Assembly (NCBI GenBank): GCA_964354685.1
Contig: CAYHAM010000006.1
Coordinates: 9,523-73,522 of the forward strand
Origin: an uncultured Methanosarcinales archaeon
GTDB lineage: Archaea > Nanobdellota > Nanobdellia > Woesearchaeales > JAGVZT01
DNA length: 64,000 bases
Reading direction: 5' to 3'
This document shows, in pieces, positions 1 through 61,304 of the stretch. How positions within the stretch are numbered: the stretch's first letter is position 1; each line of letters starts with the position of its first letter. Below the pieces are notes generated by a model. The model was given only the letters and a program-made list of their open reading frames with translations. It did not search any database and was not told where the DNA came from. The position numbers and the translations under genes are program-made.

Positions 1-3000
1 ATAAGCCAGACCTCCACTCTCCAAGAAGAAACCACCTCCTCTTTCAACATAACTTATAATCTCATCAACTTCAGAGGTGTCATTTAATATACCATTCAAC
101 ATATGATCTCCTAAACTCCACATAACAGCATCATATTCACTCATATTACTAGCATTGGGGCTTCCATTTGAGCTTGTGTTCCACTTGATATAAGAAACAT
201 CAATTGAGGTAATTGAACTAATCGCACTAGCAATCTCTTCATCATTGTTATCACTACCATGACCAGTTGTATCATCATCAACAACGATCATAAGACTCTT
301 ATCATCATCTGCCAAGAAAACACCCTCATTGCTTTCATTTTCATAACTGCTGGTAGTAACATTCACAGAAATATAATATCCTCCTTCAGATTCATTTAAA
401 TCAACAGCAAATGTGTAATTACCACTAGCATTTGTTATTCCGCTATTCTGCCAACTTCTTCCATCAAAGCTCCACATCATTAGAGAGATATTAGCGTTGT
501 TAACTGCTTGATCTGTTGAATCCATTACATTTATGGTTATATTAACACTCTGGTTGGGTTTGACTAGTGCATACTCATAGCCATCCACCAATATATTAAC
601 ATCAATTCCTCTATATAATATGAATTCTTGTCTAAAATACCGTGTTTGGTTTAACCCATCCTGATCTGTGTAATTTACCTGCACAGTTGCATTATATGTT
701 CCTGGCGCAATATTCTTTGGTATAAACAAGCTTGCCAAAGTCACATTTGAATCAGACATATTCAACTCAGGTATCTGATAACTAATTGGAATAAACCACC
801 ATTGCTTTGTGTTGTTTTCAATGTAAAGTGACACATTGATAATATCCAAATCAAAGCCACCAATGTTTGCAACAGTAGCATTAACATAGTAAATCTCCTC
901 ATTTGCAACAACTGTTGGTAAGGTGTAGTAAGCATTAACCTCTGCAAGACCAACTCCAATTGTTACAACCTGTTGTTTTGTTATTATATTGTTTGTGTTT
1001 GGATCAGTGTAATTGACTTCAATTGTGAAGTTGTATTCACCCCTTGTTGCATTTGAGGTATTAGCCCTAAACTCTGTGTAATTTAAACCTCTGGCAAGAA
1101 CAGACACATTTCTGCTATAATAATCAACATTCCAATAGTTCCAAGCATCACCACCAGACTCATTGATTATTGCTATAATACTAATACTCACATTGAAACC
1201 TTTGCTAAACCATGTGTTATTTAATGTGGTGTTTATTATTGAGGTTTCATTCCAATCAACAGAAGGTGGTGTTGCTGTGCTGATGGGTACTATTGTTGAT
1301 ACTGTAAAGAAAGTTGTGTTGTAACTATAGGCTCCGCTTCCGTAAGTTGAGTTTATAAGCACAGTGTAATTACCAGCAGAAGCATTTGATGCAACACTTG
1401 TATTAAACCTAACACTGGTGTTAGAACTAGCTAACATAAAACTAACATTATCTTCAGGAGTCCATGAAATCAAGCTGTATGCTGAATCTAAAATTGAAAT
1501 ATTGACAGTGACATTTACATTTCTAGATTGATGTGTGTTCTCTATGGTTGTATTAATCCCTAGCAAACCCCCTGGTTCAAGCTCTGTTAGGTTTACAAAA
1601 ACAGACCTTGTGAATATATTTTTAGTTACATTAAACTCTTCATTTCTATAGAATGTTGAATCGCTCACAATTGCAGTTGCATTTATTGGGTAACCACCTA
1701 ATGATGAATTTGCAGGCACTGAAACATTGAAGTTTGTTGAATTATAACCATTAAAACCTATGTTTACGAGGGATGAGGAAGGTATAACTGTCCATGCATA
1801 ATCCCCAACAACAAGGCTAACATTAACACCTGAGGCAGGAACATTACCCACATTAGTTACATTTAGAGTAAATTCTGAATCAAGGCCAATCGGTGTTTGT
1901 TCAGGTGAGATTATATCCAACAATAATATTATATCCTCTTCTATCTCTAAAACAATCTGTCCTGTTTTGTTCTTGCTCCTACCATTTGGATCAGTATAAT
2001 AATATGTATAATTTATTGAATAATTGTCAGGTAATGCATTTAAGTACGATTCAGGTGATGTGATTGTAAATGATGTGGTATTTGAACCACTACCACCCAC
2101 ATTCAAAATTCGCTCACTTGGAGAAATTGTCCACAAAACTGTCACATCCGAACCTGTAGAGTTTAGAACAATAATGTCTGTTACGTTAAATTGTACAGCA
2201 GATGAGAATCCATTTGATATTGTTATGTTTAGCTCCGAGCTCTCATTGATACCAATACTTGTGGGAGTTAGTTGATCTGTCTTAGATATTCCCACAAGCT
2301 TCAAAGTAGTAGCACCATATCTAAGTGCACCTATATTCGTGATATTACCAGTAGCCTTAATTGTGTAAGCACCAAATGACGCACTCTCATTCACCTCATA
2401 ACCCCCGCCAGAGTTATTCCAACTCAGTACTACTGAATTGATTGGTGCAATATTAGTAACATTATTTATCTCACTCCCATTTGGGCCAAAATCTTGATCA
2501 ACCTGGCTTGAATCCAAGATATCAATCCATACGCTGACATTATAATAGTTTACATCATTTATATTAGTAACATTGACATTAATCCAATCAATGATATCAC
2601 CAGGCTCAAGCTCTGATTGAGACCTAGTCACTGTCAAACTTATATCCTCTGTAACCTCAAAATCATCAGAAACATTCAAATACTCGCGCTCATTGCCATC
2701 AAAATCAATACTCACATTGGCAGAGTAATTGCCAACAATTGTGTTGCTTGGAACACTAACTGTAAAAACAACGTCATCACTACTGTTAAAGCTGATATTT
2801 GTAGATTGATTCTCAGAAGGAGAAATATTCCAATTCATTTCAAAGCCGGTGCTATTGTAAATCTTTAGAGTGAGGTTTACATTACTCAAATTTACATTAC
2901 CTATGTTATTTATTGTGATAGTCACATCAGAATCAACTCCTTTAGGCATATCAGGAGCATTAATACTTGCCGATATATTTTTGTAAGCATTCATTGTAAT

Positions 3001-6000
3001 TGTTGAATTAGTGGTCTTCTGCTTTGAAAAACCATTTGGATCAGTGTAATTAACAATAGCTTTTATTGTATAAACCCCGCTCTCAACATCAACTGGGTTG
3101 TTTGGTGGAGTGATATCAATGATTGTTGAATTAACAGCTCTGCCGCTTACATTTAACAAAATATTTCTTGGTTCAATGGTCCATAGCCCAGTATCATTTT
3201 TGTTATAGAAATCCCAGACCTCTGTTGAAATATTAAACCCAACAAGTGATGAGAAATTATTTAGGATACTAATATTAAACCCAGCATTTTCAAATAAATC
3301 AATATCAGAAATATTTAATGAAGAGCTAGCATCAACCAGAACAATTTCAAAGCTTGTCTCATTATAAGTTTTAGCACCATAACCCCATGTTGAATTTACT
3401 TGAACAATATATGCGCCAGTATTAGAACCTGCAGCAATGTAATAACCAGCCGAGTTGTTGTTCCAGCTCACAATACTAAAGGATCCTGAAGTGATATTGC
3501 TCACATTTATCTCAGAATCCAAAGGTCCAAAACTCTGATCAACATAGCTGCTATCAAAAATATTAACACTTGAATTAACAACATAACTCTCCTCGCCAGT
3601 GTTGTTGATCGTTGCATTGATCCATTCAATAAGGTCACCTGCCTCATACTCGCTATGAGCTACTTGTATGCTTGTTATAAATATGTCTTGAGTAACATTA
3701 GAAAGAGTATAATTTGTTTTTGAGTAACTAGTGTAATTAGCAACAGCAGTTATATTGTACTCTCCTAAGATGGCATTAGCAGGAACTGTTATATTAAAAT
3801 GTGTCTGATTACTTTTATTCAATACAATATCAACAACCTGAACACTTGGAACTATTGTCCAGCTCATTAGACTGCTAGTTGAATTGTAAATCAGTAGAGA
3901 AACATTTACATCCTCAAGATAAACATTGGCTAGGTTGTTGATAGTTACATTTATCCGCTTGGTTAATGACAATGGCAGTCTGTTTGGAGCAAACACACCA
4001 ACAGAGTAGTCTATAGACTCATTCACCTCAACAAATTGTGTTGTGTGCTTTGTCTTTGTTCTTCCATTAGGATCTATATAAACAACACTTGCATTTATTG
4101 TGTAATTACCAGCTTTTGCCAAATCATTTTCAGAAGGTGATGTCACAACAAAGCTAATAGTATCATTGGTGTTTGCAGCAATTGTTTTGTTCTCAGGCAA
4201 AGCAGGATTAAAGCTCCATTCATCTGTAACATCACTACCATCCTGATAAGTAATATTTATTATTGTGACATTATAGTTAACAGCACTACTCCATACATTT
4301 GATATATTGACAATGAAATTCATTGATTCACCAGGTAGTATTAATGAGTCATTCACTGTTGAATTGATCACAACTTGCAATATCCTAAAGGTAGTATCCC
4401 TTGTGACAGAATCAAGGCTATCTGGAGTAGAGGTTGCTCTAACAGTATAATTACCCAAAACAGTATCTTGGTGAATCGTATAACCATACGAAGAATTATC
4501 AAAAACAGCTTTTGCTGTTTGCCCTGTTGCAATGCTTGTGTTTGTTATATTCTCATAATCCAATGGCCCAAAGCTCTGCTCTTGGCCAGTGCTATTGAAT
4601 ATATTTATGGTGGTTGTTATGTTATGTGTTGTCTTTGCGAGATTTTTTATGCTTACAGTTATATTACTCAAGTTGTCTCCTGGCTCAAGCTCTGTTTGAC
4701 TCAAATTAACTGAGGTGATATTTATTGCCTCTGTTACATTAACATACACAGAATCCTGGGAAGAGCTACCAGCAGTTGCACTTGTAACAACAGTTATATC
4801 AGTTACCCCAACAACATCTGCACTCACATTCCAGGTTGTGTTCTCGCTCTGACCATTGTTTAGATCGCTTATGTTATGTATGGGGTCACTATTTGGCAAA
4901 CTCAAAGCACCAGAAATAATAATCTGGGCTTGCACCCCTAATATATTACCATTAATAGCAGTTACTGTAGCGTTTGTTGTGAACAAATCCCCTTGATAAA
5001 TCTGTTGATACTCTTGTGGATCAAATACTGACACATTAGCTATTCCTGCCTTTGCTAATATAAACAAGTTCTGTGGATTTTTTATATCAATAAATGTCAA
5101 GTTTAAAGTAGAATGCTCAAACACAATCCAGCTATCATCAGGATCAAGTATCCATCCATTATTCTCATAATAGCATTCGTACCTAATCTTAATCTCATCA
5201 TTATCATTAACATAATCTGACAAATCCCCAGAAATACCATACCTATCACTCACCTCATTACCACCATCATTTGTCCTCAAGTTGCCAATATCATCCCATG
5301 AGTTGCCTGTGTTGTTCCATAACTCCACATCCTGATCGCCCTGGGGAGCACCCTCAGCAGAGTCACCATCACAACCAGCAGGACTACCATCTGATCCATC
5401 ATGACAATAAACCAACATAAATGTCATATTTGTTATCAAATACTTAGACACATCCAATGAACTAATATCAAACACAAAAACACCATAACCATGAATGGTT
5501 CCTGTATCTGTTATGTCTCCAAAATACCAATAGTCGTTGTTATTAGCCCAGGTGTTTGAATAGTTGCCTCCACTCAACTGGAAAGATCCTGTGAGCTCTG
5601 AGCCGGCATCAGCAGTCTCAGGGCCAGTCAGATTCTGATTTAGGCCTTTGAATATGTAATAATCATTAACACTTGTGTTTAAAGTGAAGTTATTCAAAAT
5701 AGATACTCCAGAACTAACACTAGTCTCATCCCAAGTTATAACCCTATCATTGGCTATCCACCTACCATCACCAACATCTATGACATTCCAATTAGATGGA
5801 ACATAAACACTTGGATCTGCTCTATCTGTTAGTGTTGTTGTGCCAATGTTTGTTGAATTAAAAATAAATAACTCTGCTTCTCCCACATCCCTTGTTCTGT
5901 TGATAATATCAAATTCATAAGTTCCACCACTTTTAACAACAGTACTGTTTGGTCCTTCTGTGCTATAATTATAATTGCTTGCAACATCAAGGAACCTTGC

Positions 6001-9000
6001 TGTTGAATTAAACCAATAAACACCAGTAGTTGATTGGTTTGAATAATATCTAACCAAGGAATAATTTATATCTTGGATAGTGCCCACATCCCAAAACACT
6101 GTATCAGCTGTCATGTTTGACACACCGCCATCCAATGGACTTACATTACCATTTGTAAACCAGCTTGTGTCAAGATACTCTGTCAAATTTGTGTTGTAAG
6201 CAGGATCATTTCCATAATTGTATATATAAAATCTAACTAGCATATTTATGTTATTACCAACAAAAGGAGGTATTTCCCTTATTATCACCAAAAGTGGTTT
6301 AGAGCCCATCTCTATGTCAGTTGTTGTGATCTTTGTTGCAGTTATTGAATTTGGATCTGTGAACTCAACTGTAGAATTGATGTTGTAAACACCTGTTGAA
6401 CTATTTACAGTCACTAAGAATTGTCTTGAACTCTGAGAAGAGCTTGCTAAAGAGCTTATTGACTGACTTGTTGGAGACACCCTCCATGTTTGTGGGATAT
6501 CAGGTGTGATAGCAAGATTAGTTATTGTGTTTGCATAGTTATTGGTTATAGTTACAGTCAGTGTTGTTGTGCCATCAGGGCTTATTGGGTTTGGGTTAAA
6601 GTCAGATGTTATTTGTAACTCAACTGTTTTTACAGTGTCATCTCCACCAGAAGTTCTGTTACCATATTGATCCTCATAAATAGAATCAACATCCAAAGTG
6701 TCAATGCCAGATGTGTTTGAAGTCGCATTAAATGTTAGATTCATTGTTGAATCCATGTACAAAGGCCCACCAATATCTTGCCACTCAATTATTCTCAAGC
6801 TATCATTATAAACCCCTCCATTTGAGATGGTGCTCTCATCAACAACATAATTTGTTGGAATTGTTACATTAACATAATGTACATCACTCATATTATCCTC
6901 TCCATTGTTTGTCAAAATTAAAGTTAGCCTTGTCACATAATCCATTGTTATCTCAGATGGAACTATACTAAAGACCATGTTTGCCCTACCTTTGGCAAGC
7001 ACCTTAATATCCCTTAGGTCATTGGCACTACTTATAGAGGGAGGGGTTCTCTCATCAGACCAATTGGCAGTTGCATTGAATGCGTTCACAAATGTCTTAT
7101 CATCAAAGCATATAGGTGATGTTAAATTATAAAAAACCATTTGTTGCTCATTTGGTTGCAAAACCAAATTTTTCCAGGAGATTTTTCTAGTTGTGGAATT
7201 GTAACTAACATTTGAGAAATTTCCTTGTGTTATTGTGCTTGTGTTAACAGTGAAGTACGGCGAAGGCCCACTACAAGAATCATCAGTTATATCTTGTGTC
7301 AAATTGATTAGCACAGCTGTATCTGTAAATGTGTTTGAGAGTGTTATATTAAATTGATAGCTTGTATCAGAGCTAACTGCAGTTAGAACATTCTGAGACA
7401 ATGTAACATTTGTAACACCAAAGCTTCTCACAAACAACTCCTGCTCATTCCAATTCCTCAAGGTATAATTCCATCTATACTTAATTTCCCTAACTGTCAA
7501 ATTGGCTATTATGTTACATGCGCATGAACCAAAACCACATTGTTGGGTAGAGGTTGCACTGAATCTCAACCTATAATCATGGTTATCCTCTGTTATCAAA
7601 TCAACCTCTCCAAATGTTCTATTCGACCAACCATTAAAATCATTATTGGTTCCACTCTTATCAGAAATATTAAACAACCTTTTCAGCTGGTCATTGTCAT
7701 TATAAACATCAACATCATCATAATAAGTAGTTAGCGTATCTCCTGCACCAATTGTTGTATCCCAGAAAACAGAGGTGTTGAAAACCTGGATATACTTTTC
7801 AATAGCATCTGAAGGGGGTGTATTGTTAAATGTGTAACTCTCAGTTGTCTCATTGGTTACACTTGCTGAACATACTGCAAAGAAAACTGCAGTATCAGAA
7901 TCACTACCATAAATCCCCCAATCAGGAGCAATATTATCAGTATAACCTTGGCTCAAAAACTCTTGATCATAAGAGCCTTTTATTGTTATTGAGTAAGCAG
8001 CACTCTCATTCACAATTGCACTGAAATTTAACAAAGCAGTTCCACCAACTGCTATGCTACTACTCAGACTCCATGTAATTGACCTATTGGTTGAGTTCCA
8101 AGTTCCGCCACCGAAGTCTGTTATATTCCAATTGTTATCTGGGAAGGTAATTCTAACAAAACTACCTGCTGCAATTGTGGATGCGCCAATGTTTTTCACA
8201 CTAATATTAAACAAAATAATTTCATTGAAGTCAAACTCATCCGGAGTAATATTGAATTGATATGCAGGGTTAGAAGTCACATTAACAACAAATGCTTGGC
8301 TCTCATTCACTGTAAACCAACTATTAGTGGAGTTCTGGTACTTACCATACCATCTAAAACTACCAATGCCAGAACTATTTGATGTAATAACGTATTTAAC
8401 TGTCTTATAATAATCGGGGTATATATCTCCCAAAACAAATATCAAATTATTGCCAACTTTAGAACCACTTCCATTATCAACAACCGTCCATCCAGGCATT
8501 GTCTCATTTATTGTGACATTGTAAGCAGTAATGTCTCCTTTGTTGTAAACAGCAAGCAAAACGGTAAAGTTCGTGTTAGCCCCAACACTGCTGGGGACAC
8601 TCCTTAAAACAGACAGGTTTATAGCTCTAGTACCAGCCCCCTCACCGACCTCAAACAACTGCTCTGAAAGCCTTGGCACAATCCATTCAACCCTGTCAAT
8701 AGCACCATTGTCATCAGAATCGAAAAACATGACATTATATTCTGGATTATATGTTATATCCCTTGAAAATCCGCCAATAACATGATACAATCTTGGATCA
8801 ACTATATCTTCAGGAATATCTGTAAATGTCTTAACATTATAATAATGTATTGAAGCATTCGAATAGACCAAAACTTGTTTAAACCTATCCAACCTATTAA
8901 TACTGCTCTCTCTTTTCTGAGGAGGCTCTAGTGCCAATCTCTCATAAGTATAACCCCCAAGCAAATTCTTTTTGACTTTTATAATCTCTACAGGTTTGTT

Positions 9001-9726
9001 AATCTCTATATCCCCTTCTATTATCAATAAGGAATCATCCACTTTGGTTGTGGTAACACCTTCTGCAAAACTTCCGATCTCCTTCACCAAGGACTCGTTT
9101 ACCAAAACACCTTCTTTTGAAGTGTCAATCAACTTCTCAACATCATAACTATTAGCTTTTACCTGTGAATTCAATAGCACATTGCCTGACACAGCTTCTC
9201 TAAACTCAGGCATAACCATACCCAAAACAAATAATAGCAAAACAAAACTAAAACCAACTAAACTAATTGTTTTGGCAACTGTATTGGACTTTGTTTTATT
9301 TTCAGCATTTTCAATTAAGTTGTGCAGATATTTACACTCATCATAAAACTCTCTTTTAAAACCTTCAGATAAGTTATTATACTCAGAACAAATCTTATTA
9401 TAAATAGAAGAGGCCAATCCAACCTCTCCTTTATCCAAATGATGATATGTTTTATCAATAAGACTATAAATATAATCTCTATGCAGTACTTCTATTAATT
9501 CCTGCTTTGTCCTGGTCCTCTTAACACTTTTGGCAAGCTCTTTATCATCAAGCGAATCCTTTATCCACTTGCTAATCGCAAAGTTGAAGTAATAATTGAA
9601 AACATCATTATCTATATTAGCCAAGAACCTCTTCAACTCTAGAAGATTGTTTATCATAACACCCTCAATCTCCAAGCCCTTCTCGGCCTTGGTGTTCTCC
9701 ATCCACCATCTTTTTTGATTTTCCAT
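1..9726 (-). CDS. Giant membrane-anchored surface glycoprotein, partial (>3242 aa, 3' end outside window). Order: cytoplasmic DUF5752-like and helical N-terminus, one TM helix, many DUF11/CARDB/MG2-like Ig repeats, jelly-roll insert, GATase-I-like extracellular domain
   Basis: Not in the ORF track because there is no stop in the window. Hand translation from ATG 9726 gives MENQKRWWMENTKAEKGLEIEGVMINNLLELKRFLANIDNDVF..., TM ISLVGFSFVLLLFVLGMVM and DSDDNGAIDRVEWIVPRLSEQLFE. The same frame reads ...IISYVERGGGFFLESGGLAY at the window start. Sampled segments were open, and a premature stop would have produced a listed ORF. Confidence 0.9.
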   Translation of the reverse strand, partial: MENQKRWWMENTKAEKGLEIEGVMINNLLELKRFLANIDNDVFNYYFNFAISKWIKDSLDDKELAKSVKRTRTKQELIEVLHRDYIYSLIDKTYHHLDKGEVGLASSIYNKICSEYNNLSEGFKREFYDECKYLHNLIENAENKTKSNTVAKTISLVGFSFVLLLFVLGMVMPEFREAVSGNVLLNSQVKANSYDVEKLIDTSKEGVLVNESLVKEIGSFAEGVTTTKVDDSLLIIEGDIEINKPVEIIKVKKNLLGGYTYERLALEPPQKRESSINRLDRFKQVLVYSNASIHYYNVKTFTDIPEDIVDPRLYHVIGGFSRDITYNPEYNVMFFDSDDNGAIDRVEWIVPRLSEQLFEVGEGAGTRAINLSVLRSVPSSVGANTNFTVLLAVYNKGDITAYNVTINETMPGWTVVDNGSGSKVGNNLIFVLGDIYPDYYKTVKYVITSNSSGIGSFRWYGKYQNSTNSWFTVNESQAFVVNVTSNPAYQFNITPDEFDFNEIILFNISVKNIGASTIAAGSFVRITFPDNNWNITDFGGGTWNSTNRSITWSLSSSIAVGGTALLNFSAIVNESAAYSITIKGSYDQEFLSQGYTDNIAPDWGIYGSDSDTAVFFAVCSASVTNETTESYTFNNTPPSDAIEKYIQVFNTSVFWDTTIGAGDTLTTYYDDVDVYNDNDQLKRLFNISDKSGTNNDFNGWSNRTFGEVDLITEDNHDYRLRFSATSTQQCGFGSCACNIIANLTVREIKYRWNYTLRNWNEQELFVRSFGVTNVTLSQNVLTAVSSDTSYQFNITLSNTFTDTAVLINLTQDITDDSCSGPSPYFTVNTSTITQGNFSNVSYNSTTRKISWKNLVLQPNEQQMVFYNLTSPICFDDKTFVNAFNATANWSDERTPPSISSANDLRDIKVLAKGRANMVFSIVPSEITMDYVTRLTLILTNNGEDNMSDVHYVNVTIPTNYVVDESTISNGGVYNDSLRIIEWQDIGGPLYMDSTMNLTFNATSNTSGIDTLDVDSIYEDQYGNRTSGGDDTVKTVELQITSDFNPNPISPDGTTTLTVTITNNYANTITNLAITPDIPQTWRVSPTSQSISSLASSSQSSRQFLVTVNSSTGVYNINSTVEFTDPNSITATKITTTDIEMGSKPLLVIIREIPPFVGNNINMLVRFYIYNYGNDPAYNTNLTEYLDTSWFTNGNVSPLDGGVSNMTADTVFWDVGTIQDINYSLVRYYSNQSTTGVYWFNSTARFLDVASNYNYSTEGPNSTVVKSGGTYEFDIINRTRDVGEAELFIFNSTNIGTTTLTDRADPSVYVPSNWNVIDVGDGRWIANDRVITWDETSVSSGVSILNNFTLNTSVNDYYIFKGLNQNLTGPETADAGSELTGSFQLSGGNYSNTWANNNDYWYFGDITDTGTIHGYGVFVFDISSLDVSKYLITNMTFMLVYCHDGSDGSPAGCDGDSAEGAPQGDQDVELWNNTGNSWDDIGNLRTNDGGNEVSDRYGISGDLSDYVNDNDEIKIRYECYYENNGWILDPDDSWIVFEHSTLNLTFIDIKNPQNLFILAKAGIANVSVFDPQEYQQIYQGDLFTTNATVTAINGNILGVQAQIIISGALSLPNSDPIHNISDLNNGQSENTTWNVSADVVGVTDITVVTSATAGSSSQDSVYVNVTEAINITSVNLSQTELEPGDNLSNITVSIKNLAKTTHNITTTINIFNSTGQEQSFGPLDYENITNTSIATGQTAKAVFDNSSYGYTIHQDTVLGNYTVRATSTPDSLDSVTRDTTFRILQVVINSTVNDSLILPGESMNFIVNISNVWSSAVNYNVTIINITYQDGSDVTDEWSFNPALPENKTIAANTNDTISFVVTSPSENDLAKAGNYTINASVVYIDPNGRTKTKHTTQFVEVNESIDYSVGVFAPNRLPLSLTKRINVTINNLANVYLEDVNVSLLIYNSTSSLMSWTIVPSVQVVDIVLNKSNQTHFNITVPANAILGEYNITAVANYTSYSKTNYTLSNVTQDIFITSIQVAHSEYEAGDLIEWINATINNTGEESYVVNSSVNIFDSSYVDQSFGPLDSEINVSNITSGSFSIVSWNNNSAGYYIAAGSNTGAYIVQVNSTWGYGAKTYNETSFEIVLVDASSSLNISDIDLFENAGFNISILNNFSSLVGFNISTEVWDFYNKNDTGLWTIEPRNILLNVSGRAVNSTIIDITPPNNPVDVESGVYTIKAIVNYTDPNGFSKQKTTNSTITMNAYKNISASINAPDMPKGVDSDVTITINNIGNVNLSNVNLTLKIYNSTGFEMNWNISPSENQSTNISFNSSDDVVFTVSVPSNTIVGNYSANVSIDFDGNEREYLNVSDDFEVTEDISLTVTRSQSELEPGDIIDWINVNVTNINDVNYYNVSVWIDILDSSQVDQDFGPNGSEINNVTNIAPINSVVLSWNNSGGGYEVNESASFGAYTIKATGNITNIGALRYGATTLKLVGISKTDQLTPTSIGINESSELNITISNGFSSAVQFNVTDIIVLNSTGSDVTVLWTISPSERILNVGGSGSNTTSFTITSPESYLNALPDNYSINYTYYYTDPNGRSKNKTGQIVLEIEEDIILLLDIISPEQTPIGLDSEFTLNVTNVGNVPASGVNVSLVVGDYAWTVIPSSSLVNIGFNGYNSTNFNVSVPANSSLGGYPINATAIVSDSTFYRNEEFNVTKNIFTRSVFVNLTELEPGGLLGINTTIENTHQSRNVNVTVNISILDSAYSLISWTPEDNVSFMLASSNTSVRFNTSVASNASAGNYTVLINSTYGSGAYSYNTTFFTVSTIVPISTATPPSVDWNETSIINTTLNNTWFSKGFNVSISIIAIINESGGDAWNYWNVDYYSRNVSVLARGLNYTEFRANTSNATRGEYNFTIEVNYTDPNTNNIITKQQVVTIGVGLAEVNAYYTLPTVVANEEIYYVNATVANIGGFDLDIINVSLYIENNTKQWWFIPISYQIPELNMSDSNVTLASLFIPKNIAPGTYNATVQVNYTDQDGLNQTRYFRQEFILYRGIDVNILVDGYEYALVKPNQSVNITINVMDSTDQAVNNANISLMMWSFDGRSWQNSGITNASGNYTFAVDLNESEGGYYISVNVTTSSYENESNEGVFLADDDKSLMIVVDDDTTGHGSDNNDEEIASAISSITSIDVSYIKWNTSSNGSPNASNMSEYDAVMWSLGDHMLNGILNDTSEVDEIISYVERGGGFFLESGGLAY

Positions 9727-9741
9727 CTTACTTTTGTACAC

Positions 9742-11625
9742 TTATGACGCAACAGCCCCAAACACAACATATCCAGAGCAATTGCCTGCAACACCCAATG
9801 GAACACCCATCTTCCAGTACACTTCCTTTGTTGAATTAACACCATCCTGAGTTTTTTTAGCAAGATTAAATGTATCAACCTGCACAGCTGAGCTTGTGAG
9901 TTGACCCATTCCAGAGTAAGATACCCCAGAGCTCACGGAATATCTCTCTCTGTTTACTGAAATATTGCCTATTGTACAATTCATGCTCAAACCATCTCCC
10001 TTAAAAACAGCATACCCGTACAATGTTATATCAAGCTCCTTGTTACCAAGGTTTGTTACAGTTATGTTAACATCCTCTGTTGAATTGTCCCCTGCATTTA
10101 AACCAGAGTAGTTTATCTCATTTGGATACAAGGAAATGCCATACAACTCATTTATTGTTGTGCTTTTATTGTTTGAACCTACTAAGCTATTTACATCAAC
10201 TGCTGTCACATTACAAACCCATGAGGCATTATTTGCATAATACCAAACATCAAAAGAGCAAGAATAGTTGGCTTCATACGTGCCAGCATTAATCTGGCTA
10301 CAACTTATATTAGTATAATGATTGTTATTGTTGTCAGCACTATCAGACCAAATAGAATTGTCGTAAAAAGTTGAATTCACATTTGTTATTACGCTGATAC
10401 CATCTTGATGGCTCACAGTTGAATTGCAATAAACCTTTACACTTGAGCCCACATTCAACACAACTGGATCATCAACAACAACCTGGGTAACATTGGGATA
10501 ATAAACTTCAACAGTCAAATTATAGGTTGAGGAATTACCATCCCAACCATTTGAATCTGTACAGTTTATGCTCCATGTGTAATTACCATTACCAAAAACC
10601 CTTGAAAAGTTTTGAGTTATGTCCTCTTGTATTATTGTTTCAGATGCTCCATTCACAGAGCCATTAATAACAAGCGAACAACTGCTCACATTAGCCACAA
10701 AATCACTCACATTGTACTCCAAAACAACTGTTCGGGATGTGTTCCACTCACTATCATCACTTGGATTCTCTAAATTTATTACTGGAGGAGTTGTGTCAAC
10801 GTACAGTATCCTTATTTCAGAAGCATTCTCATTGTTGTTTGTTGAGTTATCTGTACAATTAATACTCCAATTGTATATATTGTCACCAATGTTTGTTATT
10901 GTAAAGTTTAAGGTAATACTTTCATTGATTGTTGAGTTAGTTTGATTAACATTACCATTTAATATCAAGCTACAGTTGCTAACATTATTCAGTGCATCAC
11001 TCACACTATAATAGAATGTCACATCACTTACCAAATTCCAATTGGCATTCTCTGGACCAACAAGATTTATTGATGGCCCTTGCAAATCTGAATAATTTAC
11101 CTCCAACCAAATCGTATCTATACTCGCAACCTCATTATCAGGTAATCCAACCTGCATCCCTTTCACACCAAGGTAAATCTTAGCTAACTCTTGCCAGCCA
11201 AGACTAGTTGTGATTTGATAATAATCATTCCTCAAACTAGCGCTTTGATTAGCAACACTAGAACCATTATAGGCGTTTCCATCAAGATTCTTCCATGTTG
11301 AGCCATTGTCTAAGCTATACTTCAATGTCAGCTCATCATTACCTATGACTGGATTAGAGAAGTTTGATCTCAGGGCAAGGTAAAGGTGGTGTATAGTTCC
11401 TGAACCAGGTAAATCAACAAAGTTGAAAGTATACAAACCATTACCATTGTCTGTTTCATCCCATGCAAGCATGTTATCAGGAGCCTCATCTGCTTCCTCA
11501 GGGCTGTTTGTCCAATTATCACCATAACTTCCAGAAGAAGCATAGTATTCTGAAACAGGTGCAATCACATCCTTCAAACTAATCAAAACTGCAATCAAAA
11601 TCAATATCACTAATACTTTTTTCAT
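9742..11625 (-). CDS. Secreted protein (627 aa): signal peptide, shared ~150-aa jelly-roll-like module, two Ig-like repeats, C-terminal two-domain unit homologous to the 324-aa protein at 29927-30901
   Basis: The ORF track starts at TTG 11640. ATG 11625 (MKKVLVILILIAVLISL) follows GAGGAG and the upstream stop. C-terminal motifs WYYANNASW.CNV, LSMNCTIGNI and YWK..(V/I)P are shared with 29927-30901. Confidence 0.9.
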   Translation of the reverse strand: MKKVLVILILIAVLISLKDVIAPVSEYYASSGSYGDNWTNSPEEADEAPDNMLAWDETDNGNGLYTFNFVDLPGSGTIHHLYLALRSNFSNPVIGNDELTLKYSLDNGSTWKNLDGNAYNGSSVANQSASLRNDYYQITTSLGWQELAKIYLGVKGMQVGLPDNEVASIDTIWLEVNYSDLQGPSINLVGPENANWNLVSDVTFYYSVSDALNNVSNCSLILNGNVNQTNSTINESITLNFTITNIGDNIYNWSINCTDNSTNNNENASEIRILYVDTTPPVINLENPSDDSEWNTSRTVVLEYNVSDFVANVSSCSLVINGSVNGASETIIQEDITQNFSRVFGNGNYTWSINCTDSNGWDGNSSTYNLTVEVYYPNVTQVVVDDPVVLNVGSSVKVYCNSTVSHQDGISVITNVNSTFYDNSIWSDSADNNNNHYTNISCSQINAGTYEANYSCSFDVWYYANNASWVCNVTAVDVNSLVGSNNKSTTINELYGISLYPNEINYSGLNAGDNSTEDVNITVTNLGNKELDITLYGYAVFKGDGLSMNCTIGNISVNRERYSVSSGVSYSGMGQLTSSAVQVDTFNLAKKTQDGVNSTKEVYWKMGVPLGVAGNCSGYVVFGAVAS

Positions 11626-11626
11626 T

Positions 11627-14608
11627 CTACTTCTCCTCAAACATCCTCAACGCCATCAATTTCTTATACACCTCTCCACAACTCTTGTAAACTTTGATCT
11701 TTAAATCCTTAGGTAGTTTTGAATAAACACTCTGCAACCTTTTGTAATCATCCATTGCTCCTTTTACATCATCATTCTTTATCTTTACCTCTACCTCTTT
11801 TACCAAACCATTGAATTCAATGAGATTCTTCTTAATTACATCCTCTTCTGTTTCTTTTCTTCCTTCCAATTTCTCGCTCTTCCCTTCACTCCCTTTTTTT
11901 CCTGTTTTCCCCTCTCTCCCCACAATTGTTGTGATTGTCTCTGATGTTGTGTCCTCCCCCTTTATCTTATCCATTGCCTCTATCTCACCCTTTGCAAGTT
12001 CATGCTTTTCCTTCCAAACATCCTCATCAACCCTCTTGTGATTGAACACTCCTCTAACAAATAAGAAATAATACAATATCAAAGCAACAATCAAGATTAG
12101 TCCAAGCATAATCATTATTGCCTCTGTTATTGAAAGCCCTAACTTCTCTGAAGATAACAAAGCAAAACCTGTAATTCCAATTCTATCTTTCAGCTCATCC
12201 TCTGGAATCTTACCTTCCAAGAACATGTTATAATCAAAGAGCACTAAAGTCCTTATCCTCTTTGCATTATCCAAGCCCGCATTTGAATTAATCACATACC
12301 ATATTCCTTCCCCAAACAAATCAGAAACTCTGAATCTTATTATAGGATCATTCTTGATTATGTTGTAATCACCATTCATAAATTCAATATCACTTGCAGA
12401 AGTTACAACTGCTTTCGGTATATACTCTACAACAACAATATTGTCATAACCAGACAACTCCTCATAACCCTTTTCTATCAAAATTGTCTTACTCTCTACA
12501 CTCTCATCTAAATAAGAAACCTCAACAATTCTAATCTCCTGTCCAATACTTATGTTACTAATCAGATTAGAATTGACCTCAATATACTCATTTCTCTGCT
12601 TTTCGCTATAGATTCCAAGAGGTAATTCGTTGATTATACTGACCATCTCTGTTCTATCAAAGATTTGTGTTGACTCTGACCTCTCTTTAACAACCAAATC
12701 AGCAGGTGTTGTTGTTTCTATTTGAGTTATTCTTGAGATTATCCTTGAGATTTTATTGTCAATCTCATTATCACTCAAATCAGAGTATCTCATTACCCTG
12801 AGCTCACCCACTAATAACTCAACCTCTTGCTTGCTCTGTTGCACTACATCCACCAAACCAAGCTTTGATATTGTGTCTTTCTCTAATTGATCCTTTCCAT
12901 TTAAATCAGATAGCACAAAATCTATATCCATATTCAATTTCTCAGCATCCCTTAACACACCATCAATTTTTTTAAGTGAATACTCTGAAATAAATATCTC
13001 TCTTATACTTCCATTACCAAGCTCAACAACACTTTGTTTTGCACTCTTATTGATTGTAATGTTCACCTCTGTTGAAAGAGCTCCTTCATTACCAGCAATA
13101 TCAACCGCACTAACCTTGTAGAAGTAATCGCTAACATTCTCATTGACCTCATCTGTGTAAGAGTTACCACTTACACTAACCAAGAAGTTAGCATAATTAA
13201 CATAAGGTTCCGCAGATCTATAAATATTGAAGTGGTCAACCTCTTCACCATCATAATACCATTTTAAACTAATCCTGCTTTTAGTCAACTTCTTGACATA
13301 CAAATCTTTTGGAGCTGGAGGAACAAGTGTGTCAACAATAAACAATCTACCATCTGTTATCTCTGTACCAACATTGCCCATAATATCCCTTGCCTCAAAC
13401 TCAAATGAACCAACAAGCTCATTAGACTTTTGAGTAACAATCATATAACCGCTCCACTCCTTACCAGAACCCTCGAGCGAAACCTCTTTTCTTCCATCAG
13501 TGTTATCAAACTTATAGTATAGCTTTGGAATTGGTTGTACCCTCTCAGATGTTTTCAATTTAACATTTATTATACCCTCCTTAATCCTCTCTTTATCAAC
13601 ATCAATCTCTATTGAAGCAGTTGGAGGCAAGTCTACTTCAAATTCAACCAAAGCCTTGCCAACATTGCCTGCACTGTCTTTACATTTAACATAAAACGTA
13701 TACACACCTTGATCTAAGCTTAGCTGTGTCTTATGAGTCAAAAGACTTCCACTCAAAGCCTCTGTCATGACCTCATAACCAATATCCTGCTTGTTAAATC
13801 TACAAACCACATTCTCATCTGTTGATATATTCAACATCACATCTTTTGAACTCACCACACCTTCTGGGGAGATTATTGTTAGGATAGGAACCTTTGTATC
13901 AACCACAAACTCAACCACTTCTGAATCTTCCATAACATTACTATAATGATCAACACATCTCACATAATAACTATAAACTCCATCAACAAGATTCAAAGAA
14001 TAGCTATGATATGTCTTGTTACCATCCATCTCATAGCCCATTGAATAATAATCAGTATCCAACACACTAAATCTACAATATGCATTCTCATCTGTTGTTA
14101 TTTCCAAACTAATGTTGTTTTTATTTATTGGACCAAAGGGTTTGCTTTCAATTATCTTGGGTGGTGCTGACCTTACAAACACCTTTGTGGAGCTATCATT
14201 CAGAGAGCTCTCACTAAAGTTATCTCCACTATAAACAACATAAACCAAATAGCTTCCCGCATTACCTTCATCACATCCAACAATCCAACTTGGTTCTACA
14301 GATGAATAACTCAAAGGTGCTATACTTCCTAAACCCACATCAACACCTGAAACATAAACCAAACCACTTTGATTAGCAGCAATGGTTGCAACAACATTAT
14401 TCAACGTGTAATTCTCCTTGTTGTATATCTCTCCAGCAGTTATCTGTGTGCTGTTAGGATAATTCCCACAAATATAAACCTCAGAAGGATACATGTTATC
14501 TGTTGAAATTATACTTGCATATGAATTTAGTAATATGAGTAAAATAGCTATCAACACAACTACTCCCTTCCTCTTTTCCAAAACCTCTCTCAAAATTGTG
14601 TTGTTCAT
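11627..14608 (-). CDS. Membrane-anchored surface protein (993 aa): signal anchor, Ig-like repeats, fibronectin type III-like domain, coiled coil, C-terminal TM helix and cytoplasmic helical tail
   Basis: ORF track. FN3-like LKW...VDHFNIYRS...YFYKVSAVDIAGNEGALS; TM AIMIMLGLILIVALILYYFLFV; ATGA overlap with the upstream RHH gene. Confidence 0.85.
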   Translation of the reverse strand: MNNTILREVLEKRKGVVVLIAILLILLNSYASIISTDNMYPSEVYICGNYPNSTQITAGEIYNKENYTLNNVVATIAANQSGLVYVSGVDVGLGSIAPLSYSSVEPSWIVGCDEGNAGSYLVYVVYSGDNFSESSLNDSSTKVFVRSAPPKIIESKPFGPINKNNISLEITTDENAYCRFSVLDTDYYSMGYEMDGNKTYHSYSLNLVDGVYSYYVRCVDHYSNVMEDSEVVEFVVDTKVPILTIISPEGVVSSKDVMLNISTDENVVCRFNKQDIGYEVMTEALSGSLLTHKTQLSLDQGVYTFYVKCKDSAGNVGKALVEFEVDLPPTASIEIDVDKERIKEGIINVKLKTSERVQPIPKLYYKFDNTDGRKEVSLEGSGKEWSGYMIVTQKSNELVGSFEFEARDIMGNVGTEITDGRLFIVDTLVPPAPKDLYVKKLTKSRISLKWYYDGEEVDHFNIYRSAEPYVNYANFLVSVSGNSYTDEVNENVSDYFYKVSAVDIAGNEGALSTEVNITINKSAKQSVVELGNGSIREIFISEYSLKKIDGVLRDAEKLNMDIDFVLSDLNGKDQLEKDTISKLGLVDVVQQSKQEVELLVGELRVMRYSDLSDNEIDNKISRIISRITQIETTTPADLVVKERSESTQIFDRTEMVSIINELPLGIYSEKQRNEYIEVNSNLISNISIGQEIRIVEVSYLDESVESKTILIEKGYEELSGYDNIVVVEYIPKAVVTSASDIEFMNGDYNIIKNDPIIRFRVSDLFGEGIWYVINSNAGLDNAKRIRTLVLFDYNMFLEGKIPEDELKDRIGITGFALLSSEKLGLSITEAIMIMLGLILIVALILYYFLFVRGVFNHKRVDEDVWKEKHELAKGEIEAMDKIKGEDTTSETITTIVGREGKTGKKGSEGKSEKLEGRKETEEDVIKKNLIEFNGLVKEVEVKIKNDDVKGAMDDYKRLQSVYSKLPKDLKIKVYKSCGEVYKKLMALRMFEEK

Positions 14609-14769
14609 TTTACCTTATCCAAAACCTTCTTGTCTTTTTCAAGAGCCTTTTCAATAGCCTTCTCCAAATACTCATTTAGGGTTAGACCCTTCAACACAGC
14701 AATAACCTTGGCTTTAGTATGAACATCATCCTTCAACGCTATGTTGACACGCTTTGCTCTCTTACTCAT
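14605..14769 (-). CDS. Ribbon-helix-helix DNA-binding protein 3 (54 aa)
   Basis: Hand translation MSKRAKRVNIALKDDVHTKAKVIAVLKGLTLNEYLEKAIEKALEKDKKVLDKVK shows the strand-helix-G-helix pattern. ATGA overlaps at both ends. Below the ORF-track size cutoff. Confidence 0.88.
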   Translation of the reverse strand: MSKRAKRVNIALKDDVHTKAKVIAVLKGLTLNEYLEKAIEKALEKDKKVLDKVK

Positions 14770-14921
14770 TTCACCAACTCCTTTAAAAGCCCCAAATCCT
14801 GCTTAACCTTATCCTCAATTGCCTGCTCAATATAATCCTGGATTGTTACACCTTTTAGGGTCGCCACTATCTTCAGCTGCTTATGAAGCTCCTCTTTCAT
14901 CCAGATATTTACCCGAGTCAT
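14766..14921 (-). CDS. Ribbon-helix-helix DNA-binding protein 2 (51 aa)
   Basis: Hand translation MTRVNIWMKEELHKQLKIVATLKGVTIQDYIEQAIEDKVKQDLGLLKELVK. ATGA overlaps at both ends; GGAGG upstream. Confidence 0.88.
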   Translation of the reverse strand: MTRVNIWMKEELHKQLKIVATLKGVTIQDYIEQAIEDKVKQDLGLLKELVK

Positions 14922-15085
14922 AGCTTGGCCTCCTTGATAAGATGCTTATCCTTCTCAACAGCCCTCTCAATAGCTTGCTCAAAATAATCATTCAAAGTGA
15001 TATTCTTAAGAACAGAAATAACCTTAGCTTTGGTGTGGGTTTCCTCTTTTAAGGCTAAATTGACCCTTTTTTTCTTTAATACCAT
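14918..15085 (-). CDS. Ribbon-helix-helix DNA-binding protein 1 (55 aa)
   Basis: Hand translation MVLKKKRVNLALKEETHTKAKVISVLKNITLNDYFEQAIERAVEKDKHLIKEAKL; about 60% identical to RHH3 by manual alignment. Confidence 0.88.
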   Translation of the reverse strand: MVLKKKRVNLALKEETHTKAKVISVLKNITLNDYFEQAIERAVEKDKHLIKEAKL

Positions 15086-15181
15086 ACATTATACCTTTTT
15101 TAATCAAAATCGAAGTTATATCTGCCTTTTTTTAACCACCACATACAACCCAACATCAAAAATAGCCCTTTTTAAAATTAA

Positions 15182-15230
15182 ATGATAAATATCATATAAA
15201 TATCTTTCTAATAAATATGACTTTTATCAT
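15182..15230. promoter_or_regulatory. BRE/TATA of the RHH operon flanked by two ATGA-N6-TCAT palindromic boxes
   Basis: Minus strand TAGAAAGATATTTATAT (15194-15210); ATGATAAATATCAT at 15182-15195 and ATGACTTTTATCAT at 15217-15230. Confidence 0.55.
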
Positions 15231-15284
15231 AAAATACTGCTTTAAGCAAAAACTTAATAAACAAAGCTCGCTTAGGGTGCTATA

Positions 15285-15584
15285 ATGAATCCTAAAAAGA
15301 AAAGCCAAACAAAGTTATCTAAAACAACTGGCATTATACTGCTTATACTCATTGCATCCTACATGCCGCTCCTTACAGGATGTTCTCAAGAGAAACACAT
15401 AACAATCCCAGCTGAGTGCGGAGCGATTATGGGATCACTCTTAAACAAGATTGAAACAGAAGAAGACTGCCGCGTGCAATGCAGAAACGAGTGCTTTGCA
15501 GTTGAATACGAGTTATCTAGAAGTGTTTTTGTGCAAAACAACGCAACAATGTGCAATTCTTGTGAATGTTATTGTAAAAAATAG
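15285..15584 (+). CDS. Small Cys-rich secreted/lipoprotein-like protein (99 aa)
   Basis: Hydrophobic leader ending LLTGC; C..QC...C and CNSCECYC motifs. Confidence 0.75.
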   Translation: MNPKKKSQTKLSKTTGIILLILIASYMPLLTGCSQEKHITIPAECGAIMGSLLNKIETEEDCRVQCRNECFAVEYELSRSVFVQNNATMCNSCECYCKK

Positions 15585-15665: not shown

Positions 15666-16040
15666 ATGGCACAACAAAATCAAATATATAAATGCAGTAT
15701 TTGTGGAAACATAATTGAGGTACTGCATCCTGGAGCAGGAGAGCTTGTTTGTTGCGGAAAACCAATGGAATTACTTAAAGAAAAAACCAAGGATATTGGT
15801 CAAGAAAAGCATGTTCCGGTAATAGAAAAAACAAAAACAGGAATAAGAGTAAAGGTTGGTTCAGTTCCTCATCCAATGGAAGAGAAACATTACATTGAAT
15901 GGATAGAATTAATTGCAGATGGTGTTATTTACAGAAAATTCCTCAAGCCAGGACAAAAACCAGAAGCAGAATTCAACATAAAAGCAGAAAGAACTCAAGC
16001 AAGAGAGTACTGCAATATTCATGGATTGTGGGGATCTTAA
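15666..16040 (+). CDS. dfx: Desulfoferrodoxin (two-iron superoxide reductase)
   Basis: Desulforedoxin centre CSIC...VCCGKPM plus SOR ligands [16 protein letters not shown] and EYCNIHGLW; GGGGG ribosome-binding site. Confidence 0.97.
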
Positions 16041-16117: not shown

Positions 16118-16324
16118 ATGCTGGAGACCAGCCTCTACTGGGAAGAGGAGTTCTTGATAAAATATGATACTGAAAACATGTGGGAGCTTCTTAAAACATT
16201 ACCAGAAGAAAAATTTGAGAAAATCAGAGAACTGTTTCAGGAGAACCTATCAGACACACAGAGACACTCTAAAATCCTTAAAGAACTAATGAAGAGAATT
16301 AGGAGTGATGAGTATGAGCTATGA
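16118..16324 (+). CDS. Short ferritin/rubrerythrin-like two-helix protein (half bundle)
   Basis: LYWEEEF...Y and SDTQRHSKIL resemble E..E / (D/E)..RH di-iron half-sites. The true start may be ATA 16094, just after GGTGA. Confidence 0.65.
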   Translation: MLETSLYWEEEFLIKYDTENMWELLKTLPEEKFEKIRELFQENLSDTQRHSKILKELMKRIRSDEYEL

Positions 16325-16511
16325 TGCTATAAACGACATGTTTAGAACTGTTCTTGAGCAAGAGGAGATGGTACTAAACCTATATTCAAAGATTGTGATG
16401 AAAGTTAAAAATCAGGAAGTTGTAACCTCACTTATGGAAATCATGAGAGATGAAGCTAGACACATAGAAAATGCAAAAAAGATTCTGGAGATATTAGTAG
16501 AAAGTGTGTAA
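16305..16511 (+). CDS. Short ferritin/rubrerythrin-like two-helix protein (half bundle)
   Basis: LEQEEMVLNLY...EIMRDEARHIE is a rubrerythrin-like half motif. Likely start ATG 16314, after GGAGTGA. Confidence 0.75.
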   Translation: MMSMSYDAINDMFRTVLEQEEMVLNLYSKIVMKVKNQEVVTSLMEIMRDEARHIENAKKILEILVESV

Positions 16512-60746: not shown

Positions 60747-61304
60747 TCAAATAGGCATATTTTTTAGCCTAAGCTCTTTCTCAACCTCCTTAACAAACTC
60801 AAAATATCTTTCAAAACCATAAACTATGACATGATCTTGTAAAACATCTTTATTTAGCAACAAATCAAGAAAACCTTCTTTACCAACAACAGTGCTCTGG
60901 AAGCCTTGGATAACTATTGAATATTGGGGGTCCTCAAGAACAAAGACTATCTTTTCTTTGCTAAGCAAAACACAATGGATTGTCCTTTTGCTTATCTCTT
61001 TTTTCAATAGCTCCAAGGCCCCTCTGAGCTCTGCGTTCCTTTTCAAGAACATATCTTTTTTCTCAATCTCAATAAGTGAAAGAAGAATTAGGCACTTATC
61101 ATTATCCAGATTAAGTGAACATAAATGAGAAGAGCCCAAAACAATCTTCTTGAGTATGCCATCATCAATCAGATAAGATACTCTTTTGTTAACATAAGGA
61201 TAAGTCTTATTTAGTATTTTTGCTATTTGATTAATGCTATAAAAAGCCACCAAGTTCTTAGAAAACGCTTCAACTATCTCTATATCAACATCGCCAATTA
61301 TCAA
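60747..61304 (-). CDS. Winged-helix protein with a degenerate nucleotidyltransferase-like domain (185 aa), first gene of the giant-protein operon
   Basis: YSINQIAKILNKTYPYVNKRVSYLIDDGIL...G.SHLCSLNL; C-terminal HVIVYGFERYF with no catalytic GS/DxD; TTG start. Confidence 0.75.
   Translation of the reverse strand: MIIGDVDIEIVEAFSKNLVAFYSINQIAKILNKTYPYVNKRVSYLIDDGILKKIVLGSSHLCSLNLDNDKCLILLSLIEIEKKDMFLKRNAELRGALELLKKEISKRTIHCVLLSKEKIVFVLEDPQYSIVIQGFQSTVVGKEGFLDLLLNKDVLQDHVIVYGFERYFEFVKEVEKELRLKNMPI

Follow-up and report, generated by a model that had tools for sequence, protein, structure and literature searches.

CopG/RepB of pMV158 is a small ribbon-helix-helix (RHH) protein encoded by the first cistron of the operon that it represses, while the omega repressor of pSM19035 acts on short repeats, direct or inverted, that follow a fixed short period (7-base-pair (bp) heptads). 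Box arrays of the MetJ type are an RHH precedent beside ParG and omega, and TraY is a single-chain double-RHH protein. ParG, encoded by plasmid TP228, binds parH/operator arrays consisting of short core boxes with AT-rich spacers (PMC3130281). For ParG and engineered RHH factors, box spacing is set by helical-backbone contacts and recognition is cooperative, and engineered factors with different ribbons combine on composite sites (PMC3413123). Among the archaeal examples, CdrS is a small RHH protein whose gene is co-transcribed with, and lies directly upstream of, ftsZ2, the pair being conserved across a Euryarchaeota clade, while CdrS is reported absent from DPANN archaea (PMC7439475). SvtR of the Sulfolobus virus SIRV1 (2kel) is a repressor both of its own promoter and of a gene encoding a large structural (tail-fibre) protein, and it was proposed to spread from high-affinity sites into the B recognition element (BRE) and TATA box; AvtR is a single-chain double-RHH protein (PMC5569661). 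Here we analyzed a 64,000-nucleotide stretch from an uncultured archaeon of the Woesearchaeales (contig CAYHAM010000006.1), called the window throughout, in which three small RHH genes head a minus-strand operon of large surface-type proteins. Our data suggest that the family of these RHH proteins is probably an autorepressor of its own operon promoter, tripled in the lineage of the window.

An earlier note on this DNA, made from the letters without database searches, had described three minus-strand genes of 51-55 amino acids (aa) with ATGA joins, and open reading frames (ORFs) were found at exactly those coordinates, all three being shorter than the 60-aa default of an ORF lister. RHH-A (15085..14918, 55 aa), RHH-B (14921..14766, 51 aa) and RHH-C (14769..14605, 54 aa) do head the operon and are tightly joined through to the gene of a 993-aa membrane protein (14608..11627, minus strand), with 4-nucleotide (nt) ATGA overlaps at every junction: 14921-14918 (A/B), 14769-14766 (B/C) and 14608-14605 (C/993-aa gene). 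The ribbons also read as described, RVNLAL, RVNIWM and RVNIAL. RHH-A (KRVNLAL) and RHH-C (KRVNIAL), both with a following HTKAK, are close to the family consensus, and RHH-B is a divergent paralogue with ribbon TRVNIWM, HKQLK and TIQDY. That the three are paralogous RHH proteins was borne out by their identity (47% for RHH-A/RHH-B and 59% for RHH-A/RHH-C) and by the predicted fold. Shine-Dalgarno-like motifs, AAGGAGG for B and AAGGAG for C, occur within the preceding gene 7-14 nt 5' of the starts, that of B being encoded by the RHH-A C-terminal codons KEAKL, and the triplet is probably translationally coupled. No further copy of this RHH family was detected within the 64-kilobase (kb) window, including the front of a second giant operon (60742-34341).

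A profile built from the three proteins retrieved 224 homologues of 51-66 aa, and the named ones come from Woesearchaeota, 'Nanoarchaeota' or unclassified-archaeon assemblies, with one labelled 'bacterium'. Identity within the family is 55-70% across the clade, the consensus being KRVNIxLxxxxHTKAKVIAVLKxITLNEYxEKAIEEAxEKDKxxLxKxK; R7 and N9 of the ribbon are invariant in a 35-sequence alignment of the main clade, and these R-x-N positions are common to RHH-A, RHH-B and RHH-C. The A-B-C order and the overlaps are kept in six lineages (window, L013, L001, L002, L075 and L077), the last two of which were retrieved after the locus survey described below and show the same order, overlaps and B tryptophan even though their partner protein is just 45-49% identical to that of the window. 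The ratio of nonsynonymous to synonymous substitution rates (dN/dS, NG86 method) among the window, L013, L001 and L002 was 0.06-0.27 for A, 0.08-0.27 for B and 0.12-0.25 for C, with dS reaching about 0.5-1.0 among these four lineages. The search for the triplet in related genomes that the earlier note had proposed thus returned all three copies in each of the six lineages rather than one conserved copy. All three ORFs are real, conserved genes, and since all three copies are both conserved and coupled, the duplication appears to be functional.

The AlphaFold2 (AF2) monomer model, calculated from the 35-sequence alignment, reached a pLDDT of 89.9 and showed an extended N-terminus, two helices (residues 14-26 and 31-45) and, at the C-terminal end, a short third one (47-54). 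Its top Foldseek matches in the PDB were all RHH proteins, namely CopA(SO), ORF56 of pRN1, Arc, AtaR, PutA-RHH, CopG and SvtR, with TM-scores of 0.6-0.87, and the [GN]-[ILV]-T turn occurs in RHH-A, RHH-B and RHH-C, placing the proteins by fold in the ribbon-helix-helix (Arc/MetJ/CopG) superfamily. When the family profile was compared with the PDB, ParG (1p94) was the best sequence match (E = 0.009, with KRVNV/HT aligned), while SvtR was a weak one.

Matches to Pfam were all below the gathering threshold and included ParD, the HicB C-terminus, ParG, CcdA and CopG_antitoxin, the best score being that of RHH-B against ParD (25.8 bits, cutoff 27.3). NCBIfam and PADLOC returned nothing above threshold for the five operon proteins searched, and no curated model covers this RHH family. 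These weak matches, together with the public name 'HicB family' borne by homologues, would fit orphan or degenerate type II antitoxins (ParD, HicB or CopG-antitoxin-like) or plasmid- or virus-derived RHH proteins with no role in the surface operon. Such an origin is barely credible, given that a toxin-like neighbour is absent, that 51-55 aa accommodate the RHH domain alone, with neither a toxin-neutralising tail nor the HicB N-terminal domain, that the conserved neighbour is a large membrane protein in 40-41 of 47 loci, and that the GC content of the window is uniform at ~35% with no mobile-element signature. The earlier observation that no toxin gene is adjacent agrees with the Pfam, NCBIfam and PADLOC searches, which found no toxin domain. 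A type II antitoxin was rejected on the nature of the downstream gene, which encodes the 993-aa membrane protein, and on the end of the RHH proteins ~10 residues past helix B; HicB was rejected on a match limited to its C-terminal RHH part (profile positions 18-51 of 51) and the lack of any hicA-like ORF. Homologues including P0027, P0030, P0045 and P0051 are annotated as 'predicted HicB family RNase H-like nuclease' or 'HicB family antitoxin'; because the homologues consist of the RHH domain only, these names are misleading, and the present analysis corrects them.

The genomic distribution of the family was then evaluated. Searching genome contigs with the 993-aa family gave 3 loci, and searching metagenomes with the RHH profile gave 61 more. 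Three distant genomes (L004, L006 and L009) carry a single RHH gene directly 5' of the gene for a protein of 846-971 aa, which is 26-30% identical to the 993-aa protein of the window over 600-840 residues. The non-redundant set comprised 61 RHH loci, 47 of them with at least 600 nt of downstream sequence, and a homologue of the 993-aa protein lies immediately 3' of the RHH gene in 40 of these 47, or 41 when L072, missed by the distance filter, is counted. Two of the exceptions are short or unclear loci, and the others make up one clade (L061, L063, L065 and L069). This orphan clade, to which L067 also belongs, has the ribbon [KR]KVNIGL and the motif TLQEY, and unrelated ORFs follow its RHH gene. 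The typical module is a single RHH gene first, followed by a membrane protein of 850-1050 aa with two transmembrane helices and an ectodomain of immunoglobulin-like (Ig) and fibronectin type III (FN3) domains. The public names of the partner homologues are 'fibronectin type III domain-containing' or 'hypothetical', and a literature search turned up no earlier account of the pair or of the family. The family would therefore represent a regulator of DPANN archaea (Woesearchaeota, Pacearchaeota and 'Nanoarchaeota' assemblies) with the 993-aa protein as its conserved partner, as judged from synteny, a point not raised in the earlier note.

Copy number over the 61 loci is one in 53, two in four and three in four. 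In a neighbour-joining tree, which is built on ~50 residues and is indicative only, A, B and C fall into separate clades, each containing the same four lineages, while the two-copy loci branch elsewhere; tandem duplication thus seems to have occurred at least three times, in L016/L053, in L050/L068 and in the triplet, with one divergent copy each time. Hence the triplet appears to be a lineage-specific tandem expansion of a usually single-copy regulator. In the two-copy loci L016 and L053 the divergent copy is the upstream one (KRINIQLPDEIHAKAK...PLS). A further Ig-like membrane protein of 570-620 aa occurs near the module in the window (16514-18376, minus strand), L004 (4029-5798) and L009 (162-1877) with 26-30% identity; as these genomes are distant, the conserved neighbourhood may exceed two genes.

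The region upstream of the RHH genes was then analyzed. About 45 RHH loci share a promoter, aNA-GAAAAGTATTTAAAT, 5' of the first RHH gene, and its form in the window is GAAAGATATTTATAT (15208-15194, minus strand), a predicted archaeal promoter with near-consensus BRE and TATA elements. Transcription would start near 15172, judging from the usual archaeal TATA-to-start distance. Two predicted operators flank it on the same strand: O1, ATGATaaaaGTCAT (15230-15217), has two AT(C/G)AT boxes centred at -20 and -11 from the start of the promoter 15-mer, and O2, ATGATatttATCAT (15195-15182), has two boxes at +15 and +24, the first of which overlaps the 3' end of the TATA element. The motif TCAT stands exactly 8 nt past the TATA box in 27 of 45 RHH promoters and in 1 of 32 other promoter-like matches, that one match (L056) being itself an RHH promoter. 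A sigma-70 promoter and terminator scan was uninformative for this archaeal sequence.

Pairs of boxes were counted in 46 non-redundant 200-nt upstream regions, with expectations taken from dinucleotide shuffles. TCAT was followed by TCAT at 9 nt 28 times (0.5 expected), ATGA by TCAT at 10 nt 21 times (0.4 expected) and TCAT by ATGA at 8 nt 10 times (0.3 expected); all three distances amount to a centre-to-centre spacing of 9 bp for AT(C/G)AT boxes, which are near-palindromes and occur in both orientations. With respect to the promoter 15-mer, box centres peak at -74, -65, -56, -47, -38, -20, -11, +15, +24, +33 and +42. A strict two-box pattern has a density of 7.2 per kb within 260 nt 5' of RHH genes, compared with 0.039 per kb elsewhere (308 kb), a 186-fold difference; the matches elsewhere are mostly in coding sequence, with one in the L026 spacer between the RHH and partner genes and one at L060's own RHH promoter. 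The loose pattern TSATN5TSAT, which lacks the AT-rich spacer, was uninformative, being swamped by GAT-rich coding sequence. In the 64-kb window the strict pattern is found solely at the operon's own promoter, besides one match inside coding sequence, which points to autoregulation of one promoter and not to a combinatorial regulon. The 52-nt block made of O1, BRE, TATA and O2 is almost invariant in the four triplet lineages compared, and in L075 and L077 too, while the DNA farther upstream varies; the four boxes of the triplet lineages are canonical AT(C/G)AT. The hallmark of an autoregulatory RHH operon, boxes of fixed period overlapping the operon's own promoter, was thus found, and the upstream region that the earlier note had named for binding assays (15086-15284) does hold a conserved operator-like array. 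Three loci (L016, L053 and L052) keep the promoter and show repeats of the TATAA/ATTAT type past the TATA box instead of TCAT, which may be another operator change.

In clades with other ribbons, the promoter and the partner gene are retained and the boxes are again laid out periodically, with other box sequences. Ribbons of the main class, [KR]R[VI]N, go with TCAT/ATGA boxes (23 per kb). The ribbon QLNIR goes with TAGCA boxes that repeat every 8 bp (20 per kb versus 0.6 in the main class), KxV[NHY]IKI and KKVNVAI go with ACTTA (15 versus 3.2 per kb), and KKVHIQ goes with GTAAT (10 versus 3.9 per kb). An automated periodic 5-mer search, noisy because orientation was ignored, was used as partial support only for this covariation. 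The covariation of ribbon and box provides the best available evidence that the encoded protein may read the boxes and, together with the phased near-palindromic arrangement, lends indirect support to DNA reading by the paired ribbons of an intertwined RHH dimer.

On these grounds, a mechanism can be proposed. One RHH dimer would occupy each 5-bp near-palindromic AT(C/G)AT box, the boxes lying 9 bp apart in either orientation and keeping a constant phase to the strong BRE/TATA promoter that they flank. Neighbouring dimers would bind cooperatively, with a spacing set by the helical backbone, and those on the boxes abutting or overlapping the TATA element and start site (O2) would hinder TBP, TFB and RNA polymerase, blocking assembly of the pre-initiation complex. 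The operon would in this way repress itself and hold the output of surface protein steady. In the lineage of the window, the regulator gene would have been duplicated twice in tandem, leaving three copies under purifying selection and still coupled, two of them (RHH-A and RHH-C) near consensus and one (RHH-B) modified, either in its preference for box or flank or for partnership with A or C. DNA binding by these proteins, and repression rather than activation, are what we infer from the observed genes with their conservation and gene-pair synteny, from the operator array, which covaries with the ribbon, and from the modelled fold.

Several points weigh against autorepression. In the orphan clade neither a partner homologue nor canonical TCAT pairs were found, and canonical boxes are also absent from L016, L053 and L052. 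The box cores of the ribbon classes were picked after inspection of the data, the four classes coincide with clades and thus represent few independent events, and the density contrast for the KKVHIQ/GTAAT class is weak. Activation could equally be the function of the boxes that lie 5' of the BRE, and a first cistron that represses its own very strong promoter is a plausible arrangement, though still hypothetical. No RNA sequencing runs containing this sequence were found, the DNA runs recovered being metagenomes of drinking water and sediment. Finally, autorepression leaves the need for three copies unexplained.

The earlier note had proposed that coupled synthesis could yield up to six homo- and heterodimers of different specificity for combinatorial control. 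In this model, taken a little further, mixed A/B/C heterodimers, or cooperative assemblies of different homodimers, would recognize different box types and exert a graded or combinatorial control of the surface operon. Three ATGA-coupled copies long retained in six lineages are in line with it, as are the three or more tandem duplications in the family with one divergent copy each and the cooperation on composite sites of RHH proteins that have different ribbons on one backbone (PMC3413123). RHH-B has a tryptophan at the third outward-facing ribbon position, HK[QK]LK instead of HTKAK, which changes a nearly invariant alanine of helix A to leucine, and TIQ instead of TLN; all of these are constant in the five B sequences read (window/L013, L001, L002, L075 and L077). 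The changes in ribbon and helix A suggest that the role of RHH-B is probably modified, with heterodimers, cooperative mixed assemblies or a separate site as possible outcomes. The leader block of the triplet loci described below, unseen in the single-copy regions inspected, could be an extra site.

Other observations argue against this model. R-x-N is identical in A, B and C, and the third outward-facing position, alanine in A and C, is A, Q, E, K, G, R, S or P in single-copy orthologues that retain the AT(C/G)AT box. As this position varies freely while the box stays, A and C probably share one specificity. The claim that the ribbons differ in specificity is weak between A and C, and B alone is distinctive. 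Moreover, all boxes of the triplet lineages are canonical, and the strict pattern in the window is confined to the operon's own promoter and one coding match. Taken together, heteromeric control seems rather unlikely, and we retain autorepression by an RHH family that would read AT(C/G)AT boxes as the preferred interpretation.

The partner protein was examined as well. The 993-aa protein has an N-terminal transmembrane segment or signal anchor (16-34) followed by five Ig/FN3 beta-sandwich domains (Big_13, FN3), a helical bundle, an alpha/beta domain, a second transmembrane helix (833-851) and a 142-aa cytoplasmic helical tail, whose last ~70 residues are predicted to form a helical bundle (pLDDT 71-85); its AF2 model had a pLDDT of 77.7. 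Sequence and Foldseek searches with this protein returned generic Ig/FN3 arrays only, which does not tell S-layer, adhesin and receptor identities apart. A BLAST comparison of the tail with the other proteins of the window gave a weak match to a 284-aa ORF (61601-62455), which was discarded as probably compositional.

The presence of this tail raises the question of whether the RHH and 993-aa proteins form a membrane-linked signalling pair, in which the tail would bind or sequester the RHH protein and the state of the surface, such as its assembly or a contact with a host cell, would feed back on transcription. The two genes adjoin each other family-wide, with a 4-nt overlap in several loci including the window, the tail ends in a predicted helical bundle, and the RHH proteins (55-70% identity) are far better conserved than the ectodomain partner (24-32%). 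The tail itself, on the other hand, is weakly conserved, the orphan RHH clade exists without the partner, and simple autoregulation explains the synteny equally well, so that signalling of this kind seems very improbable. It also seems improbable that the two proposals combine in a dedicated, co-evolving regulatory unit of DPANN archaea, built on an asymmetric hetero-oligomeric repressor with B as a specialised subunit; the tail of the surface protein would set the availability of this repressor, and surface assembly or host contact would be reported directly to the promoter of the adhesin/giant-protein operon.

The downstream part of the operon continues on the minus strand with a 627-aa gene (9742..11625), encoding a secreted or anchored Ig-like protein with 6.4 N-X-S/T sequons per 100 aa, and a giant gene (1..9726) of at least 3,242 codons, open at the window edge, with a transmembrane helix at 154-172 and 5.9 sequons per 100 aa. 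The most likely start of the 627-aa gene, ATG 11625, is 1 nt past the stop of the 993-aa gene, and ATG 9726 of the giant gene is 15 nt past the stop of the 627-aa gene, leaving no room for a promoter between successive genes. Past the partner gene, L004 and L006 likewise retain the C-terminal part of the 627-aa protein. L004 has a further large gene (>1,000 aa, cut by the locus end) and L006 lacks one; thus the giant gene is not a constant part of the module and is, as far as these loci indicate, a lineage-specific addition.

Between the promoter and RHH-A, the triplet loci carry a conserved leader block, TGTTGGGT ... GTGGTTAAAAAAGGCAGA (15100..15156, minus strand), which can also be read as an 18-codon ORF, MLGCMWWLKKGRYNFDFD, stopping 14 nt before the RHH-A ATG. 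A leader ORF of 17-25 codons with an ATG or GTG start (MLG-x3-WLKK(A/G)(E/R)...) is present in six of six triplet lineages and ends 13-14 nt before the RHH-A ATG in five of them, overlapping the RHH-A start in L077. In the window and L013 the second half of the peptide differs from the others by a frame shift that leaves length and stop unchanged, and the leader may thus be a DNA or RNA element and not a conserved peptide. None of the single-copy upstream regions inspected showed the block. No conserved RNA structure was detected in the leader (consensus energy -1.85 kcal/mol, single-sequence z-score -2.2), and Rfam, run on the whole window at the gathering threshold and on 14900-15400 in E-value mode, gave no matches, nor did a scan for tRNAs. 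Many single-copy leaders contain TTTAGTATAC 20-40 nt 3' of the TCAT boxes, often doubled as GTATAC-N6-GTATAC (L006, L017, L018, L020, L025, L033, L035, L042, L044, L046, L049 and L053). This element is absent from the triplet lineages, and its self-complementary GTATAC hexamer could fold into a hairpin or serve as another site for a protein.

On the opposite side of the promoter, a divergent gene for a 99-aa lipoprotein-like product (MNPKK...LLTGCSQ; 15285-15584, plus strand) starts 54 nt from O1, and a conserved TATA-like motif, TTAATAAAC, precedes its ATG by ~23-33 nt within 15239-15284. A small opposite-strand gene (105 aa) lies at the equivalent position in L001, matched by position only. 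The RHH boxes might thus control both directions. A desulfoferrodoxin gene lies near the operon in the window (15666-16040, plus strand), L001 (551-925) and L002 (92-466), the orthologues in L001 and L002 carrying the Pfam domains Desulfoferrod_N and Desulfoferrodox. Small rubrerythrin-like ORFs (16118-16511 in the window) are, together with desulfoferrodoxin, syntenic in close relatives; these neighbours are consistent with an anaerobic lifestyle. The second giant operon (34341-60742, minus strand) encodes proteins of 5,598 and 3,202 aa with an ATGA-type overlap at 43946-43949, and upstream of it lie ORFs of 185 aa (60747-61304) and 284 aa, the latter being the one mentioned above.

DPANN archaea are mostly uncultivated and attached to other cells, much of their small genome encodes huge surface proteins, and very little is known about the regulation of these surface-protein genes. 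The present family offers a regulator-operator pair that can be defined from sequence alone, in which a protein of 52 aa goes with boxes of 5 bp that repeat every 9 bp in a constant BRE/TATA register. Its ribbon variants and their matching boxes constitute a natural 'specificity table', and the recurrent expansion to two or three copies could show how a homodimeric repressor evolves into a heteromeric one. All of this could be tested on synthetic genes and oligonucleotides, with no need to grow the archaeon.

Among the described systems, AvtR and TraY resemble the putative A/B or B/C heterodimer in that two non-identical RHH units make one asymmetric DNA-reading module; their units are fused in one polypeptide, whereas here they would come from separate coupled cistrons, the heterodimer being hypothetical. 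A literature search returned no natural RHH heterodimer of paralogues. ParG resembles the family in its ribbon region, where its KRVNVNFDEEKHTRFK aligns to the family KRVNIxLxxxxHTKAK. It differs by its flexible N-terminal tail, its ParF ATPase and its role in plasmid partition, while the system of the window has no ParA/ParF gene among the neighbours searched and shows an AT(C/G)AT box, a 9-bp period, an archaeal BRE/TATA promoter and a surface-protein partner. A centromere-binding protein of the ParG type was rejected, as no ParA-family match was found in the neighbours searched and only 2-6 residues precede the ribbon. CopG and omega are likewise small RHH proteins, CopG leading its own operon and omega reading repeats of fixed period, but they serve bacterial plasmid copy-number control or maintenance, use other box sequences and periods, and are encoded by a single gene copy.

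Among the archaeal relatives, SvtR is an archaeal-type RHH protein with a weak profile match (E = 0.09) and a Foldseek match to this family; it is viral, encoded by a single gene, and acts on an imperfect inverted repeat ~80 nt from the promoter. CdrS provides a parallel in gene order, since it too is a small archaeal RHH protein encoded directly before a structural cell gene, and a large clade has kept the pair. Its partner, however, is FtsZ2, whereas ftsZ is not adjacent here, and the comparison is by fold and synteny only. An identity with CdrS was rejected by synteny with ftsZ2, not by sequence, as 40-41 of 47 loci have the Ig/FN3 membrane protein as neighbour. RHH autorepressors whose operators consist of tandem boxes are an already known kind. 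What appears to be new is a dedicated pair of RHH protein and large surface protein that spans a DPANN clade, the predicted operator phased at 9 bp around an archaeal promoter with its ribbon-box covariation, and a conserved version with three paralogues that are probably translationally coupled.

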